NCBI GenBank assembly: GCA_023244815.1
Contig: JAHFLQ010000004.1
Span: forward strand, 1 to 59,259
DNA: 59,259 bases
Reading direction: 5' to 3'
DNA from: a bacterium
GTDB taxonomy: Bacteria; Patescibacteriota; Minisyncoccia; UBA6257; WO2-44-18
Below the pieces are notes generated by a model, which worked only from the letters and a program-made list of their open reading frames with translations, was not told where the DNA came from and searched no databases. The translations under genes were made by a program, and so were the position numbers. Below, one piece after another: positions 1 through 58,373 of this stretch (the stretch's first letter is position 1; each line of letters opens with the position of its first letter).

Positions 1-71
1 TGCCCCCACTAGGAATCGAACCTAGGTCAACTGGTTAAAAGCCAGCTGCTTTACCACTAAGCTATGGGGGC
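1..71 (-). tRNA. tRNA-Lys(UUU)
   Basis: Reverse complement folds as a cloverleaf: acceptor GCCCCCA/TGGGGGC, anticodon loop CTTTTAA, T-loop TTCGATT; no encoded CCA visible (window edge). Confidence 0.95.
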
Positions 72-4166: not shown

Positions 4167-4895
4167 ATGGAGGTGCGCTTGAAAGATTTAAAGATTTTCC
4201 AAAAGCTGATTGGTTACGAATTCAAGAACCTGAATTTGTTAGAAGAGGCGCTGACGCATAGTTCCTATCCGAACGAACACAAAGATTGGCCCTACAAATC
4301 AAATGAGAGGTTGGAGATGTTGGGTGATTCGGTTCTAGAGCTTGCGGCTACCGACGAGCTATTTAGAAAATTTCCTAAGTTCGCAGAAGGAGATTTAACT
4401 GCCGCTCGGAGCGCTATGGTTAATAACAAAACCCTGTCTAAGATTGCCGAAAAGCTCAACATCGCGGATTGGATATTTGTATCACGCGGTGAAGCTAAGA
4501 GTTCTGAAAAGCCGCGGAACGCTATGGCGGTGAGGGCACTCGAAGCAATTATCGGCGCCATCTATATGGATGCCGGCCACGACATTGCTAAAAAGTTTGT
4601 ACAGGAGCGCGTCCTACGTCAACTTATGAATTACATGGCCTTACTTGGCGGCGGATCCTATCGTGACGCGAAAAGTTATCTTCAAGAAAAGATGCAATCA
4701 GAAAAGGGGATTACATCAACATACCGGACGTTAAAAGAAACAGGACCAGAAAATGAAAAGGTATTTGTGGTGGGCGTTTATGCAGATAGCGAACTGCTAG
4801 GTATGGGGTCCGGTTCTTCCAAGAAAGAAGCGGAACAATGTGCCGCAAAGCATGCCCTTGATCAACTTAGCGCCAAAAAGGAGGCGATGAGATGA
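4167..4895 (+). CDS. rnc: ribonuclease III (divergent)
   Basis: NERLEMLGDSVL signature, LEAIIGAIYMD, C-terminal dsRBD (DAKSYLQE...GSSKKEAEQ); the real start may be TTG 4179 after GGAGG. Confidence 0.92.
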   Translation: MEVRLKDLKIFQKLIGYEFKNLNLLEEALTHSSYPNEHKDWPYKSNERLEMLGDSVLELAATDELFRKFPKFAEGDLTAARSAMVNNKTLSKIAEKLNIADWIFVSRGEAKSSEKPRNAMAVRALEAIIGAIYMDAGHDIAKKFVQERVLRQLMNYMALLGGGSYRDAKSYLQEKMQSEKGITSTYRTLKETGPENEKVFVVGVYADSELLGMGSGSSKKEAEQCAAKHALDQLSAKKEAMR

Positions 4896-5830
4896 AACTA
4901 AGCAAAAAGCTGAACATATTAGAAATGTACTGCTTAGATCTGGAAAAATTTGAAAGAATTTCACCACAAGAAGAAAAAAGGCTAATTGCGGCGATTAGCA
5001 AGGCTCAGAAAGACAACAATCAGCAGCTGGCGATCCGACTTCGTAATGAGCTCGTGGAGATTAATTTAAGATTGGCGCTGATGGTGGGTAAAAGATTCGC
5101 TCGGTATCTTGATATTCGATCGAAAAGTGTGGATGAGTTAGACCTTATCCAAGAAGCAAATCTCGGATTAATCAAGGCAGCTGAATCATTCAATCCAAAA
5201 AGAGGGTTTCGGTTTTCTACTTACGCCTATTCTGTTATAGAGGGTTACGTAAAAAATTTTGTTCGTGACCGTCTTAGATTTATTCGGGTTCCTGCTGATT
5301 GCCAGAGAATGGTTTTCAGGGCGCGTGAAGCGTCGGTTGCCGATAATGGTCGTACGCCTACTTTGCAGGAAATATCTGAAGCGATGAAGATTTCGAAGGA
5401 AGACGCAATGCTTCTCACGGCCATAATTAACACCCGTGTATCGTCCTTGGACACGGAGATTGCTGATGGCATGAAGCTTGTAAATAAAGTTGCTTCCAGG
5501 CGTCTTTCTAGTAGTCAGGTGCTTGAAGCAAAGGAAGCACTGTCGGAAATTTTCCAAGCTATGGGTGGACTACCAGAAGAAGTAGCCAAAGTATCAACTT
5601 TGAAGGAATACCAGATATTTTTTCATCGATACGGCCTTGACGGAAGCCACCAATTTAAAGATACTACAGAAATTGGCAGACGGTTTCGCATAACAAATGA
5701 AAGGGTTCGTCAGATTATTAATGAGGTTTGGAAAAAACTGAAAGAAGCACGCCTTTGGTCTGGCGAAAGTAAACTTTGCGAGTTTCTTAGTCAGTTTGAT
5801 AAACTCGAAGGTATAATTGCCGCAAATTAA
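4892..5830 (+). CDS. sigma-70 family RNA polymerase sigma factor (RpoD/RpoS-like fold, degenerate region 2.3-2.4)
   Basis: DLIQEANLGLIKAAESFNPKRGFRFSTYA (region 2), PTLQEISEAM (region 3), EIGRRFRITNERVRQI (region 4.2); ATGA overlap with rnc. Confidence 0.88.
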   Translation: MKLSKKLNILEMYCLDLEKFERISPQEEKRLIAAISKAQKDNNQQLAIRLRNELVEINLRLALMVGKRFARYLDIRSKSVDELDLIQEANLGLIKAAESFNPKRGFRFSTYAYSVIEGYVKNFVRDRLRFIRVPADCQRMVFRAREASVADNGRTPTLQEISEAMKISKEDAMLLTAIINTRVSSLDTEIADGMKLVNKVASRRLSSSQVLEAKEALSEIFQAMGGLPEEVAKVSTLKEYQIFFHRYGLDGSHQFKDTTEIGRRFRITNERVRQIINEVWKKLKEARLWSGESKLCEFLSQFDKLEGIIAAN

Positions 5831-5857
5831 AATCCCGCAATTGATTGCGGGATTTTT
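5831..5857 (+). terminator. intrinsic terminator
   Basis: AATCCCGCAA/TTGCGGGATT 10-bp stem plus T-tract directly after the stop. Confidence 0.85.
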
Positions 5858-6186: not shown

Positions 6187-6276
6187 TGCCCAGCTCCTAA
6201 AAACTTTCTAAAAGAAACTTTGCTTAATATACTACATTCAAAATAAATATAAAAGAGGCCAATTAAAAAACCGCGT

Positions 6277-6759
6277 TTAACGCGGTTTTTCTAAAATTTT
6301 GTAGCTTCTTATCTCAAGCCACCAAGTTCCCTTTATGTTAGTTTTTTTACCATCGAGATCTTCCAGGGTAAAACTTTCTAGCGTGTATGTGTACCTATGC
6401 CTGACGTAAAAAGTTACTTCGATAACTGCTCCTCTCGCAAAATCGTTAGTGGTGCCAGGCGTTGCTAGAAAGTAGTTTACGCCGTCGGAATTCACTACAC
6501 AGGTTGTTACGGGTTCTTCTCGGTTCTCGTGTTCCAGCAAGCTCAGACGTCTGGTTGAGGAGCCCACATAAATAAGGCATCCTTTTATGTACTTCTCTGC
6601 CGCCTGCTCAGATTTCAGGATTTTTGGAGTTTCATCTGAAGAACAGCTACGCAACAGGAAACTGCCAAACAACCACAAAAGGATATACAGCACTGCCGTG
6701 ATCGTAAAGCAAATCAAGAGGTCGAATTCTCCTCTTTGCGCCACAAGTTTTCGCGGCAC
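6277..6759 (-). CDS. membrane-anchored hypothetical protein
   Basis: GTG at 6759 after AAAGGA; promoter TTGACA-17-TACATT lies inside the longer track ORF (6277..6837); N-terminal TM; terminator 6265-6290 overlaps the stop. Confidence 0.75.
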   Translation of the reverse strand: MPRKLVAQRGEFDLLICFTITAVLYILLWLFGSFLLRSCSSDETPKILKSEQAAEKYIKGCLIYVGSSTRRLSLLEHENREEPVTTCVVNSDGVNYFLATPGTTNDFARGAVIEVTFYVRHRYTYTLESFTLEDLDGKKTNIKGTWWLEIRSYKILEKPR

Positions 6760-53935: not shown

Positions 53936-54526
53936 TCACTTCAGAATCTTCACCTCCAGCCACCGCACACCCCATTGGCGTGCCGCACTGTGGCTGGCCA
54001 TGCGGACATCGATGTGAACGATGCCGCGTTTGGCGTCCTGCCGCATCGCGCCCCCAGTGTCGTCCACCTCGCGGAGGCCGACACTGGGGATTTCCAGCAG
54101 GGTGTGATAGGGGAGCAGTTTCGGATCCGCCGCCACCCCGTCACAAACATTGGCGTTTTTACCAATGGACGTCCTGCCGGCGCCACTGAACTTTTCGCAG
54201 CAGATCTCGCAAGTGCAGTATGCCGTTACCAGCATCCGCATCGTCCGATACCGTCTTACCTCGACAGGCGCTGGATCAGCGCGTCGAGGAGCCGGCGCCT
54301 CTGCCTTCTCCACAGCCACCACGGACGAAACCGCATTACGACTGGCCGCTGAAGCTTCATTTGAACCCCCACGCTTCCAGTTTGCGCAAATCCCATTAGA
54401 AGTAGGCCGCCCCGAGGTGGCCGTAGCCACTGCCTGTTCACAGGCAGGGCGACTTCTAACGGGACAAACCCCCAAAACCCCTGCTCCTATCAGCAGCGCA
54501 AGGCCGACGATAGGAGATGCCCGCAT
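53936..54526 (-). CDS. secreted 3D-domain (MltA-like) cell-wall-acting protein
   Basis: ATG 54526 after GAGGAGG; signal peptide; VTAYC...GVAADPKLLP...VDDTGGAM...HIDV (three Asp); promoter TTGACA-17-TATGTT. Confidence 0.85.
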   Translation of the reverse strand: MRASPIVGLALLIGAGVLGVCPVRSRPACEQAVATATSGRPTSNGICANWKRGGSNEASAASRNAVSSVVAVEKAEAPAPRRADPAPVEVRRYRTMRMLVTAYCTCEICCEKFSGAGRTSIGKNANVCDGVAADPKLLPYHTLLEIPSVGLREVDDTGGAMRQDAKRGIVHIDVRMASHSAARQWGVRWLEVKILK

Positions 54527-54649
54527 AAATCCTCCTCTTTCTTCAAAGTACAAAAAACACCTCAATAACATAGCACAAACAAAAACTCCTGTCAATAGAC
54601 AGGAGTTTTTGATGCCCGCCTGCCGCGCTATGCGCAGCATTGCGGGCAG

Positions 54650-55486: not shown

Positions 55487-56785
55487 ATGGTAACCAAAAC
55501 CGCCAAGAAAGAAGCGGATGTCAAAAAAAAGATTCAAAAAGAAGAGAGCCGGCCAGGGACAGCCAGACCCTCGGAGGGGGACGCGGTATCGAAAGAACTC
55601 ACAAAAGGAGGCGAAGAAATTTCTATTATTAAATTAGTGGACAATCTGGTGGAATCCGCCTTTCATTCTCGCGCTTCCGATATTCATATAGACCCGGCGG
55701 AAAAACAGATTTCCGTCCGATTCAGGATTGATGGCGTGCTTCACGATTTTTATACCTTTCCCAAAGAAATCCAGTCCGAAGTCATCAGCCGCGTTAAAGT
55801 TCTTTCCGGTTTGCGCACCGACGAGCACCAGGCCGCGCAAGACGGCCGCTTCCGTCTGACTTTCAGTGGTGTCAATGTGGACGTGCGGGTTTCCGTCGCG
55901 CCAACTTATTACGGTGAAAATACCGTCATGCGTTTGCTGGCTGATCAGGCGGAATCCTACACTCTCGAAACCCTCGGCTTTCAAGGGCGCGATCTGGACG
56001 TGGTAAAGAGAAACATTACAAAGCCCTACGGGATGCTGCTCGCTACCGGACCGACCGGCTCCGGCAAGACCACCACGCTTTACACGATTTTGAAAATGCT
56101 CAACACCAAAGAAGTTTCCATTATTACTATCGAAGATCCGGTGGAATACGCGATTGGAGGTATTGAACAGATTCAGGTGAACACGCGCACTGGACTCACT
56201 TTTGCTAGCGGGCTGCGTTCTATTTTGCGGCAAGACCCGAATATTGTAATGGTTGGTGAGATTCGCGACGAGGAAGCCGCCGGTATCGCGGTCAATGCCG
56301 CCTTGACCGGTCACCTTTTGCTCTCCACCCTTCATACTAATGACGCCGCGACGACTTTGCCGCGCCTGCTGGACATGGGCATCGAACCGTTTTTGATCGC
56401 CTCCACGGTGAATATCGCTATCGGCCAACGTTTGGTAAGAAAAATCTGCGACGGGTGTAAGACCAAAAAAGATATTACCGCCGATGAGCTGAAGAGCCTC
56501 GCTACGGTTTTGCCGGTTAAGGTGCTGGACGATTACAGAACTTTTTATTACGGCGCCGGTTGCGCCCAGTGCGACCATAGCGGCTATAAGGGACGCATCG
56601 GCATTCACGAAGTAATGGAAATTGACGACGAAGTGCGCCTAGCCCTGATGAAAGGCGCCGACGCGAGCGAAATTAAAAAAATTGCCATCAAAAATGGCAT
56701 GACAACGATGGTGGAAGACGGTTTCCGCAAGGCGATTGAGGGAGTTACTACTATTGAGGAAATTCTTCGTGTAATTCACGATTAG
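55487..56785 (+). CDS. pilB: type IV pilus/T2SS assembly ATPase PilB/GspE
   Basis: RASDIHIDP, RFRIDGVL, GPTGSGKTTTLY, TIEDPVEY, LRQDPNIVMVGEIRD, STLHTNDA, CxxC...CxxC. Confidence 0.93.
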   Translation: MVTKTAKKEADVKKKIQKEESRPGTARPSEGDAVSKELTKGGEEISIIKLVDNLVESAFHSRASDIHIDPAEKQISVRFRIDGVLHDFYTFPKEIQSEVISRVKVLSGLRTDEHQAAQDGRFRLTFSGVNVDVRVSVAPTYYGENTVMRLLADQAESYTLETLGFQGRDLDVVKRNITKPYGMLLATGPTGSGKTTTLYTILKMLNTKEVSIITIEDPVEYAIGGIEQIQVNTRTGLTFASGLRSILRQDPNIVMVGEIRDEEAAGIAVNAALTGHLLLSTLHTNDAATTLPRLLDMGIEPFLIASTVNIAIGQRLVRKICDGCKTKKDITADELKSLATVLPVKVLDDYRTFYYGAGCAQCDHSGYKGRIGIHEVMEIDDEVRLALMKGADASEIKKIAIKNGMTTMVEDGFRKAIEGVTTIEEILRVIHD

Positions 56786-56791
56786 CGACGT

Positions 56792-57883
56792 ATGGCAAAA
56801 CTACAGGTCAAAATAAATCTTTTCACCGGCCTGTTTTTCCGGGTGCCGACTCAAGACCAAATTTTATTTGCGCGCCATCTGGCGGTGATGTCAAAAGCCG
56901 GTCTGCCTCTTATAGAAAGTCTCAAGTTGATCCAGAAAGAAACCAAATCCAGGGCCATGCTGAAGATTCTCGATCAAGTTATTAAAGACGTGAGCAACGG
57001 TCAGTTTTTGTCGGCCAGCTTGGATCGTTACAAAGAAATTTTCGGCAGCTTATTTATTAACATTATCCGAGTCGGCGAATCAGCCGGAATTTTATCGGAA
57101 AACCTGAATTATCTGGCTGATGAACTTAAGAAAAAACGGGAGCTTAAGAAAAAAGTCATTGGCGCGCTTATTTATCCGGCGATAATTTTCGTTGCCACTT
57201 TCGGTATCACCGGATTACTGACGGTCTTTATCTTTCCCAAAATACTGCCAGTTTTCAAGAGCTTAAATATTACATTGCCTCTCACCACCCGGATTTTGAT
57301 CTGGTTCAGTAATGCGCTCACTGACTACGGCCCATATGTAATTGCCGCTTTTGGCGTGCTTATAATCAGTCTTTGGTTGTTGGCCCAGCTTAAGAAAATC
57401 CGCTATTTCTTACACTTTTTCCTCCTGAAACTTCCGGTCTTTGGCAATATCGCTCGCGATGTTAATCTTGCCAATTTTTGCCGTACACTTGGTTTGACTA
57501 TCAAAAGTGGCGTGAAAATTGTGGAGGCGCTGGAGATTACCTCCGAATCTCTTTCAAACTTTGTTTATAAAAAGAATATTCTAGCGATAGCGGAAAACGT
57601 AAAAAAAGGAGAAGCCATTGCACAATACCTGATTAAACGGCACAAGCTTTTTCCGGTAGTAGTTTCCCAGATGGTTTCGGTGGGGGAAACGGCCGGAAAT
57701 TTGAGCGAGACCTTGCTCTACCTTTCCGAATTTTATGAAAGCGAGGTTAATGAAGTTACTAAAAACCTTTCCAACATCCTTGAACCGATTTTGATGCTGG
57801 TGATGGGAATAGTAGTAGGCTTTGTGGCAATTTCGATTATTACCCCCATTTATGAAGTCAGTCAAAACATTTCTACTCGCTAA
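56792..57883 (+). CDS. pilC: type IV pilus/T2SS inner membrane platform protein PilC/GspF
   Basis: FARHLAVMSKAGLPL, GESAGIL, ALIYPAII, VGETAGNL, LEPILM. Confidence 0.93.
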   Translation: MAKLQVKINLFTGLFFRVPTQDQILFARHLAVMSKAGLPLIESLKLIQKETKSRAMLKILDQVIKDVSNGQFLSASLDRYKEIFGSLFINIIRVGESAGILSENLNYLADELKKKRELKKKVIGALIYPAIIFVATFGITGLLTVFIFPKILPVFKSLNITLPLTTRILIWFSNALTDYGPYVIAAFGVLIISLWLLAQLKKIRYFLHFFLLKLPVFGNIARDVNLANFCRTLGLTIKSGVKIVEALEITSESLSNFVYKKNILAIAENVKKGEAIAQYLIKRHKLFPVVVSQMVSVGETAGNLSETLLYLSEFYESEVNEVTKNLSNILEPILMLVMGIVVGFVAISIITPIYEVSQNISTR

Positions 57884-57887
57884 AATA

Positions 57888-58373
57888 ATGCGCGGATTTA
57901 TCCCGTCACCTTTTCAAGAGAATTGCAGGCTGCAAAGCAGCCCTCGGAAAGGTGCGGGATTTACGGTGTTCGAGTTACTGATAGTGATGGGTATTTTCGC
58001 GCTGATTATCGCGGTCGCGACCCCCGTGGGCATTACTTTTTACCTCAGCTATCAATTCGATTCCGAGTCTAATCTTTTAACCGCCCTTCTCCGGCACGCC
58101 AGGAATTTGTCTATGGTTAATTATAGCGAATCGGATCACGGCCTGCACGTGCTTAGCGACAAGTATGTAGTTTTCGAGGGAGCGAGCTACGCCACCCGCA
58201 TTCAGGCAAATGACAAAAAATTTCCCAGAGATACCGTTATTACGTTGACGGGTCCAACGGAATTAGTTTTTGCCGCTCTTTCCGGTCAAGCCGCATCCAG
58301 CACATTCAGTTTTTCCGGTAGTAATAAAAGTCGGGATATTTTTGTAAATCCTGAAGGGCTGGTTTATGAATAA
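57888..58373 (+). CDS. prepilin-type protein (FimT/GspH-like minor pilin)
   Basis: G|FTVFELLIVMGIFALII class III signal; LRHARNLSM. Confidence 0.88.
   Translation: MRGFIPSPFQENCRLQSSPRKGAGFTVFELLIVMGIFALIIAVATPVGITFYLSYQFDSESNLLTALLRHARNLSMVNYSESDHGLHVLSDKYVVFEGASYATRIQANDKKFPRDTVITLTGPTELVFAALSGQAASSTFSFSGSNKSRDIFVNPEGLVYE

Follow-up and report, generated by a model that had tools for sequence, protein, structure and literature searches.

A MITE-like hairpin in the leader of a Patescibacteria minor pilin and its probable kinship with inverted-repeat-bounded GIY-YIG nuclease units

Rickettsia palindromic elements (RPEs) are short palindromic stretches of selfish DNA that lie in frame in unrelated housekeeping genes and are translated as an extra peptide (PMC10969869). 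They occur only in Rickettsia, measure about 100 to 150 bp, and encode a peptide that is conserved; no autonomous partner of theirs is known. [quoted passage not shown] REP sequences are palindromes dispersed by a single rarer nuclease or transposase gene (RAYT) that is flanked by the same palindromes; they are extragenic, carry a GTAG/CGTC tag, and leave no target duplication, and RAYTs are HUH Y1 enzymes. Classical GIY-YIG homing endonuclease genes (I-TevI, T4 seg) have a DNA-binding domain, have neither terminal inverted repeats nor a target duplication, and spread via double-strand-break repair. Here we analyze a stretch of 59,259 nucleotides (the window; positions 1 to 59,259 of contig JAHFLQ010000004.1, assembly GCA_023244815.1), part of a 139.6-kb groundwater metagenome contig of which 74 kb was readable, in which a 63-bp insert carrying a 59-bp palindromic element lies in the leader of a minor pilin gene.

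We consider it probable that this is a MITE-like hairpin of a family whose full units encode a GIY-YIG nuclease and that it persists in the pilin as a tolerated passenger. An ORF-less 59-bp hairpin bounded by 12- to 13-bp repeats (TCCCGCACCTTT and AAAGGTGCGGGA) would have inserted between the codons for Phe(+1) and Thr(+2), as a miniature member of a family that also includes nuclease-encoding units of 280 to 332 bp, and an 85-amino-acid (aa) GIY-YIG nuclease of the UPF0213/SLX1 type would mobilize both the full units and the hairpins. We speculate that the nuclease may recognize the repeat stem or a cruciform and cut at T-N-N-A, action on such a structure being suggested by its kinship with the structure-specific nuclease SLX1. 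The copy in the pilin would be tolerated by virtue of an extra T that keeps it in frame and of a right arm that, together with the duplication, re-creates K-G-A-G/F-T-V-F-E (here and below, a slash in a peptide marks the cleavage site). The features concerned, all on the plus strand, are as follows.

57852 to 58373, plus strand: minor pilin gene (FimT/GspH/ComGD-like) with its likely start at ATG 57852, from ortholog leaders and Pfam
57888 to 57890, plus strand: alternative start codon, 5 nt past the pilC stop, the ATG chosen in the earlier note
57894 to 57899, plus strand: GGA TTT, the Gly and Phe codons of the original gene, which now encode a vestigial G-F ahead of I-P-S-P-F-Q-E, from the sequence and the empty-site alignment
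57897 to 57900, plus strand: left copy of the 4-bp target-site duplication TTTA, from family flanks and the empty site GGATTTAC in locus L002
57901 to 57913, plus strand: left terminal inverted repeat TCCCG-T-CACCTTT, from the sequence and the family consensus TCCCGCACCTTT
57914 to 57947, plus strand: variable interior of the element, with an inner hairpin GGCTGC-AAA-GCAGCC at 57928 to 57942, from the sequence and the fold
57948 to 57959, plus strand: right terminal inverted repeat AAAGGTGCGGGA, read K-G-A-G and supplying Gly(-1), from the sequence and the family
57960 to 57963, plus strand: right copy of the target-site duplication TTTA, from the sequence, empty sites, and family flanks
57957 to 57974, plus strand: rebuilt class III cleavage motif GGA TTT ACG GTG TTC GAG, that is G(-1)/F(+1) T V F E(+5), from the sequence and Pfam N_methyl

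The layout agrees with that given in an earlier note on this DNA, made from the letters of the window: GGATTTA occurs at 57894-57900 and 57957-57963 with a spacing of 63 bp, and between the two copies inverted arms (ATCCCG-T-CACCTTT at 57900-57913 and AAAGGTGCGGGAT at 57948-57960) enclose the inner hairpin. The 63-bp insert is in frame and contains no stop codon, and the 59-bp element has no ORF of its own. Folded as RNA, the hairpin stretch reaches -37.5 kcal/mol (z = -4.3), and none of 200 shuffles was as stable. Taken alone, the 7-mer GGATTTA is unremarkable (15 in the window against 12.4 expected); the feature is more than chance because orthologs show 63-bp gaps, two assemblies are identical, and the 24 arm bases recur at 83 other loci. 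By alignment with empty sites and with the family, the 63 bp resolve into the 59-bp element (57901-57959) and a duplicated 4-bp TTTA. What the earlier note had called a 7-bp target-site duplication is a repeat of GGATTTA, as it said, but its duplicated part is TTTA; the extra GGA belongs to the right arm, whose last bases (…GCGGGA) coincide by chance with the Gly codon.

The case for an insertion is carried by empty sites. A search of 5.8 billion proteins returned 32 homologs of the pilin, at most 67% identical to it, and the 21 residues encoded by the insert are in none of them. All five orthologous DNA loci that were compared, each beside pilC, show one clean 63-bp gap exactly at the insert: in L002 the empty site reads ATGCGCGGATTT directly joined to ACCGTGTTCGAG where the window has ATGCGCGGATTT-[63 bp]-ACGGTGTTCGAG, and the empty target of the orthologs is GGATTTAC without the 63 bp. 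These sites bear out the claim of a tiny mobile palindromic element lying in frame in a prepilin leader. The two outcomes that the earlier note had named as fatal to its proposal, namely long leaders in all orthologs together with single-copy arms, or translation starting downstream of the element, are not what we found. The identical insert sequence was recovered in two independent assemblies from two samples, and it is therefore not an assembly artifact; the relatives of the window stem from 0.1-µm groundwater fractions.

The leader that received the insert was probably longer than previously thought. An in-frame ATG at 57852 overlaps the end of pilC and gives the leader MKSVKTFLLAKIMRG/F, and each orthologous pilin gene likewise has its start ATG in overlap with the 3' end of pilC; the upstream in-frame stretch MKSVKTFLLAKIMRGF of the window matches their leaders, for example MKSAKAFLANHMRG/F followed by T. 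At the position of ATG 57888, the homologs P0003 and P0005 have ATG and P0002 has GTG, while P0004 and P0007 have no start there. Since ortholog starts overlap pilC and P0004 and P0007 lack the later start, the ancestral leader was most likely 15 residues long and not the M-R-G that the earlier note took to be restored by deletion of the insert. Judged from these alignments, the start is likely ATG 57852 and not ATG 57888, which is possibly a site of re-initiation. Read from ATG 57852 the leader, insert included, has 36 aa, as against 15 aa for the empty form, and read from ATG 57888 it has 24 aa, again including the insert; aligned ortholog leaders mostly have about 13 to 16 aa.

With the insert, the precursor reads M…RGF-IPSPFQENCRLQSSPRKGAG/FTVFELL…, and the sequence around the second G-F is K-G-A-G/F-T-V-F-E-L-L-I-V-M-G-I-F-A-L-I-I-A-V-A. 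The window pilin has the features of class III (prepilin) signal peptides, namely Gly(-1), Phe(+1), Glu(+5), a hydrophobic helix, and a positively charged leader, and differs from them in the length of its leader and in the additional, vestigial G-F. Glu(+5) and the hydrophobic helix come after the second G-F only, and the Pfam N_methyl match lies over the rebuilt site (residues 20-44 of the protein read from 57888). Prepilin peptidases need Gly(-1) at the membrane-proximal site and tolerate varied leader lengths. The K-G-A-G that the right arm supplies is a normal prepilin leader end, and the duplicated bases do rebuild the G/F cleavage site (GGA TTT ACG at 57957), as the earlier note had it. 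Because the right arm and the duplication rebuild this site, the 21 added residues fall within the leader peptide, and by analogy with other prepilins they should leave with it when the prepilin peptidase cuts. Given that members of the family all end in …GGTGCGGGA and that the target here is GGA-TTT-A/CG (the slash here marks the insertion point), a family insertion at this position always rebuilds GGA TTT ACG (G/F-T).

The reading frame depends on a single base. The consensus arm of the family, TCCCGCACCTTT, lacks the base T57906, and the window copy is the only one of 87 to have a T there; in one other copy, L055, a G stands at the same position of the left arm, likewise in frame, and no further copy has an extra base. 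Without T57906 the element and its duplication would amount to 62 bp, and the pilin would meet a stop codon soon after the insert. The T is either a frame-restoring change or was inherited from the donor. A second leader insertion was found in a homologous pilin, P0019 (L092 1560-1593), in which a 26-bp hairpin is flanked by direct repeats, TAAA-CCCCCACACCAATTATGGCGTGGGGA-TAAA; the insert of 30 bp is in frame and adds ten residues (KPPHQLWRGD), the empty site is at L094 1525, and the arms are a variant of the CCCCACACC type, which also brackets GIY-YIG units. As a second and independent case, P0019 supports the view of the leader as a permissive site.

To place the element in a wider context, one genome for each of 185,579 species was scanned for TCCCG-(0-1 nt)-CACCTTT followed after 15 to 45 nt by AAAGGTGCGGGA. 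This arm pattern occurs at 83 loci in 86 copies, where about 0.3 loci are estimated by chance from the size of the collection, and the loci come from many lineages of Patescibacteria, from Omnitrophota, Planctomycetes, and Nitrospirota, and from a few others (for loci in metagenome-assembled genomes, the taxonomic labels are those of the record titles). The window element thus has terminal inverted repeats of the MITE type, with arms identical in the 86 other copies, which measure 43 to 73 bp and have very different interiors. Identical 4-nt direct repeats flank 37 of the 86 copies (permutation mean 6.6, maximum 15) and inverted ones flank two; the direct repeats are TTTA (11), TAAA (9), TTCA (9), TGAA (5), TCAA (2), and TCCA (1), from which we conclude that the target duplication is 4 bp long and of the form T-N-N-A.

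Like RPEs, these hairpins can lie in frame inside protein-coding genes. Adding 4 to the length from arm to arm gives a multiple of 3 for 49 of the 86 copies (p = 6e-6), and 15 of the 18 copies inside long ORFs preserve the frame, with host genes identified by Pfam as queuine tRNA-ribosyltransferase (TGT), UvrC, RlmN, MurG, Ham1/RdgB, endonuclease V, and an ABC exporter, where the insert splits or stretches the profile match. None of the six frames of the arms has a stop codon, which would explain why frame-keeping copies survive inside genes. In 20 of the 86 copies the end of the element abuts the start codon of a plausible gene, as …AAAGGTGCGGGATG, such that the right arm seems to provide a Shine-Dalgarno (SD)-like AAGGTG and the A of the ATG; the SD-like motif of the arm faces outward in the hairpin derivatives. 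Copies of this kind include L014, L018, L020, L026, L044, L053, L054, L061, L065, L071, L078, L081, and L088-L090, among others, and by eye the genes have ParA-, GlgA-, L15-, L23-, DapF-, and LptF/G-like N termini. The TGAA duplications are duplicated start codons and may lead gene callers to false N-terminal extensions.

Other copies lie in intergenic DNA or inside RNase P RNA genes (Rfam RF00010), with one hairpin each in L028, L060, and L083 and four in L042. The RNase P RNA copies are without T-N-N-A direct repeats, and their host genes, at the positions listed here, are enlarged, up to 511-563 nt.

L042 6664 to 7174: RNase P RNA gene with four hairpins (Rfam RF00010)
L028 1996 to 2439: RNase P RNA gene with one hairpin (Rfam RF00010)
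L060 5503 to 5858: RNase P RNA gene with one hairpin (Rfam RF00010)
L083 6972 to 7534: RNase P RNA gene with one hairpin (Rfam RF00010)

The proposal in the earlier note that the element exploits cleavable leaders finds a parallel in P0019 but is too narrow in view of the copies in housekeeping ORFs, at start codons, in RNase P RNA, and between genes; leaders are one permissive site among several. Mobility is evident from the family. One Omnitrophota genome has three near-identical 65-bp copies (L014, L026, and L068) at three different gene starts and in both orientations, L026 and L068 being opposite in orientation and matching at 40 of 41 interior bases, and several copies per genome are found in genomes other than that of the window (three near-identical ones in JACPTX01, at least six in JAQUPG01).

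Two further observations concern the surroundings of these hairpins. At L040, L045, L052, L064, L070, L082, and L086 (labeled Omnitrophota or Planctomycetes), a larger repeat surrounds the hairpin, with a further stem (ACTTACG…CGTAAGT) and the spacer TGCGCGAAyTTA to one side of it or to both, and many interiors share TATTCA…TGAATA; this is possibly a composite element. At L010, L038, L049, L068, and L088, hairpins from different phyla sit at gene junctions of one conserved multigene operon that looks like a ribosomal-protein operon. Clustering of all ORFs from the 83 loci revealed no recurrent transposase near the hairpins, the neighbors being housekeeping operons and RNase P genes only, and no copy was found in 2.9 million IMG/VR contigs that would point to viral carriage.

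A candidate for the full-length form emerged from L043, where two units of about 300 bp have family arms at their ends and direct repeats (TTGA; TTTTTG) as flanks. The GIY-YIG proteins encoded, one per unit, have about 91 aa (Pfam PF01541, E = 1.6e-17) and are only 48% identical, with the arms kept in both units. There are many homologs of about 85 aa, and the C terminus of several, …KVRG or …KGAG, is what the right arm encodes. Residues Y5, Y16, G18, R26, H30, and E50 are invariant in 24 homologs, in line with the Y, Y-I-G, R, H, and E expected for GIY-YIG catalysis, and the nearest solved relatives are the UPF0213 proteins BH0048 (1zg2) and EF2693 (1ywl), followed by SLX1.

Starting from an alignment of seven sequences, we collected 80 metagenomic loci that encode relatives of this nuclease. 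Both family arms (at most two mismatches) occur within about 40 nt of the ORF at 28 of the 80 loci, and when any inverted repeat was sought, 61 of 79 loci proved to be units of 280 to 332 bp bounded by inverted repeats of 12 to 25 bp. The arm variants covary on both sides of a unit (CCCCGCACC/GGTGCGGGG, CCCTCACC/GGTGAGGG, CCCCACACC/GGTGTGGGG, CCCCGCACCTTT/AAAGGTGCGGGG, TCCCTCACCTTT/AAAGGTGAGGGA, CCCCACACCTTT/AAAGGTGTGGGG, and TGCCGCACC/GGTGCGGCA, plus more distant types). Direct repeats of at least 4 nt flank 34 of the 61 units, TTGA being the commonest (permutation mean 4.6, maximum 10). Full units with the arm type of the window element (ATCCCGCACC) are found in L043, L097, and L101; the one in L101 (1467-1771) reads TAAA, TCCCGCACCTTTTTAGGAT, an 85-aa ORF, ATCCTGAAAAGGTGCGGGA, TAAA. 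The sub-terminal TTTTCAAGAG of the window element also resembles TTTTCAGGAT of the ORF-bearing units. We conclude from the shared sequences that the short hairpins are probably ORF-less derivatives of the 280- to 332-bp units, which are likely the autonomous form and would be mobilized by their nuclease.

Some units occupy recurrent sites. Units of about 300 bp lie near the 5' end of 16S rRNA genes (L110 428-2210, L172 1399-3223, L157, and L169), always between CAAGTCGA and GGCAAACG and with differing arm variants, which looks like site-specific homing into one rRNA helix. At L143-L146, L128, and L135, units adjoin tRNA genes and have direct repeats of 7 to 8 nt (GCCTATAG, CTCGTAG, CCGGTAG), apparently copies of the tRNA's 5' end. 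Different units at L111, L120, L147, and L149 have common flanks, GA(T/C)GATCG on one side and AGGAAAGT on the other, which resemble the 5' part of RNase P RNA, a likeness left unconfirmed by Rfam, which called no RNase P gene there.

Several points weigh against this explanation. To our knowledge, transposition by an 85-aa GIY-YIG protein has no precedent, and GIY-YIG homing of the classical kind produces no target duplication; nuclease and hairpins are linked only by shared repeats and co-occurrence. About half of the copies have no direct repeat, including every copy in RNase P RNA, and, because the scan demanded exact arms, these look more conserved than they are and copies that have diverged are undercounted. 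The assembly support consists of contigs and not of raw reads over the region, and no variant or empty allele at the insert was present in Logan contigs; the empty sites come from other species, the nearest homolog being 67% identical. The readable 74 kb of the contig contains no other copy and no GIY-YIG gene, neither source metagenome assembly has a second copy of this variant at 80% likeness (one each), and JGI metagenomes contain no sister of this interior. Searches of the window with arms at up to two mismatches, with the whole element (blastn-short), and with generic CCC..CAC inverted repeats gave chance matches only and no second copy, nor are single arms overrepresented; the multicopy state of MITEs is not seen in the readable part of this genome. 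The mobility claimed in the earlier note is accordingly shown for the family and not within this genome, and the arm search it called for gave a single copy in the readable 74 kb together with the 83 loci in other genomes. Because the window copy is single and slightly damaged, it has probably long ceased to move and persists as a fossil passenger.

Of the other explanations, the one that survives best is decay in place, in which a GIY-YIG unit of about 300 bp was inserted and its interior later deleted to leave a 59-bp in-frame remnant, the short form never having moved. The existence of full units with exactly this arm type (L043, L097, and L101), the resemblance of the sub-terminal bases of the window element (CACCTTTTCAAGAG) to those of full units (CACCTTTTCAGGAT), and the single copy in this genome, as far as it is visible, would all be in line with such a history. 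An insert of 300 bp would, however, first have knocked out the pilin, and both a deletion and a 1-nt correction of the frame would then have been needed; moreover, short hairpins propagate as such elsewhere, as the interiors of L026 and L068 show, which match almost completely at different sites of one genome. We regard decay in place as unlikely.

It is also conceivable that the hairpin has been co-opted for regulation, with a stem that blocks initiation at AUG 57888, offers an RNase III site, or stabilizes the mRNA. The stability of the stem given above would suit such a role, as would its position, since the hairpin begins 12 nt after AUG 57888 and 48 nt after AUG 57852, and family arms can join translation signals, as the 20 copies with AAGGTG and the A of an ATG suggest. 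An RNase III is encoded in the window (4167-4895; Pfam Ribonuclease_3 and dsrm, precomputed matches), and long stems of family elements could be its substrates in mRNA, rRNA, and RNase P RNA precursors. Yet no ortholog has the hairpin or an equivalent structure, the stem bears no sign of selection and its left arm is already bulged, and with the start at 57852 the stem lies outside the initiation footprint. An effect on translation, which the earlier note had raised, is possible, either as a block at 57888 or as a cut by RNase III; co-option as the explanation of the element we consider improbable.

Slightly less credit still is due to the idea that the pilin has been crippled or inactivated, its long leader remaining unprocessed or being cut at the upstream G-F, and is a pseudogene in the making. 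Next to the leaders of the orthologs, one of 36 aa that contains two G-F motifs and three prolines stands out as unusual. Against this, the ORF continues to 58373 and is intact to its C terminus (VNPEGLVYE), which is conserved in the 32 homologs, and it retains all 20 invariant residues of the family; a specific extra base keeps the frame, and of the two G-F motifs the downstream one alone leads into the hydrophobic helix and E(+5).

That the arms are instead a motif selected by the host, such as a protein-binding RNA stem or an uptake-type sequence arising repeatedly by mutation, was already disfavored and appears very improbable. Structural RNAs and the junctions of ribosomal-protein operons do harbor arms in several phyla, and the core resembles uptake signals of the AAGTGCGGT type, but the clean 63-bp difference from orthologs, the flanking direct repeats, the identical copies at different sites and in both orientations, the lack of overrepresented single arms, and the one copy in 74 kb all speak for insertion. 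We give next to no credence to translational bypass (as in T4 gene 60 and the byp elements of Magnusiomyces mitochondria) from a take-off GGA at 57894 to a landing GGA at 57957, for which the matched GGA codons around a stable hairpin would be suggestive, since no stop follows the take-off codon, the gap is open and in frame, and the enrichment of the family for frame-preserving lengths implies read-through and not hopping. Resemblances to IS5 ends (GGAAGGTGCG…), to dif/Xer and integron attC sites, to uptake sequences, and to bulge-helix-bulge introns were rejected on orientation, spacing, or copy distribution.

Returning to the reading of the hairpin as a miniature member of a GIY-YIG family, the described systems seem to offer analogies in behavior, the closest being RPEs and intragenic MITEs. 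Membership in the RPE family is unlikely in view of the 59-bp size, the host range, and the hypervariable interior: in contrast to RPEs, the hairpins are 43 to 73 bp long, conserve only their 12- to 13-bp arms, have 4-bp direct repeats, occur in several phyla and also in RNase P RNA genes, and have arms in common with a nuclease-encoding unit. With MITEs they share terminal inverted repeats, a target-site duplication, the lack of an ORF, hairpin transcripts, occasional in-frame fusions, and probably an origin from a longer element with the same ends, but this longer element encodes no DDE, HUH, serine, or tyrosine transposase and only the 85-aa GIY-YIG nuclease, the interior of the hairpins is hypervariable, and the window element is single copy in the readable part of its genome. 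Like GIY-YIG homing endonuclease genes, the full units have a GIY-YIG domain and may sit at fixed 16S rRNA sites, and they differ from these genes by their 12- to 25-bp inverted repeats and, at 34 of 61 units, direct repeats of at least 4 nt. The arrangement of palindromes around a single rarer nuclease gene recalls REP sequences and RAYTs, which differ in their extragenic location, tag, enzyme type, and lack of a target duplication.

The units differ from all insertion-sequence families known to us in having no DDE, HUH, serine, or tyrosine transposase, and we know of no mobile-element role assigned to UPF0213 proteins. In a literature search of incomplete coverage, which leaves room for a prior description, no account was found of these arms, of GIY-YIG units flanked by inverted repeats, or of in-frame palindromes in Patescibacteria or Omnitrophota, and the family is apparently widespread and undescribed. 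We suggest, tentatively and with less than even confidence, that the 280- to 332-bp units represent an unrecognized class of autonomous prokaryotic mobile element that uses a structure-specific nuclease and no known type of transposase. If so, they would be among the smallest autonomous mobile elements known, and their ORF-less derivatives would have settled in frame in coding regions as well as at start codons, in RNase P RNA, and in 16S rRNA helices across Patescibacteria and Omnitrophota; a small GIY-YIG protein that moves elements would give the widespread, uncharacterized UPF0213 family a function and add a new type of enzyme to the bacterial transposition systems.

The pilin copy would be a case of a selfish element rendered harmless in a protein by sitting in the segment that is cut off, with its own end rebuilding the cleavage site. 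More broadly, an RPE-like phenomenon appears to exist outside Rickettsia, in ultra-small Patescibacteria and in Omnitrophota, where hairpins have entered the genes for housekeeping proteins, RNase P RNA, and rRNA. Such entry would affect the evolution of proteins and RNAs in reduced genomes, may help to explain some of the rRNA insertions reported in these lineages, and bears on gene calling through false N-terminal extensions and split domains.

The host gene belongs to a type IV pilus operon, in which the two genes upstream are the following.

55487 to 56785, plus strand: pilB-like type IV pilus or type II secretion system ATPase gene (Pfam T2SSE, E = 7.8e-126)
56792 to 57883, plus strand: pilC-like platform protein gene (Pfam T2SSF, E = 6e-56)

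The last 32 nt of pilC overlap the likely start of the pilin gene, and the same overlap is present at the orthologous loci. The minor pilin has 161-173 aa, matches Pfam N_methyl with 22.8 bits (cut-off 21.2), and shows weak matches to ComGD and GspH; more pilin-like genes lie downstream.

Elsewhere in the window, an apparent arm pair at 2-237 consists of a tRNA end and coding sequence, and the palindromes at 5829-5856, 6266-6290, 54052-54089, and 54580-54611 are short G+C stems with T or A runs, terminator-like and with unrelated arms. Rfam gave no match at gathering thresholds, and at E values up to 10 it gave only noise on the hairpin. Just upstream of the window, the contig (L175 1-5713) encodes HsdR and HsdM of a type I restriction-modification system as well as a large serine recombinase; these genes adjoin the tRNA gene at window 1-71, and the stretch may be an integrated element.

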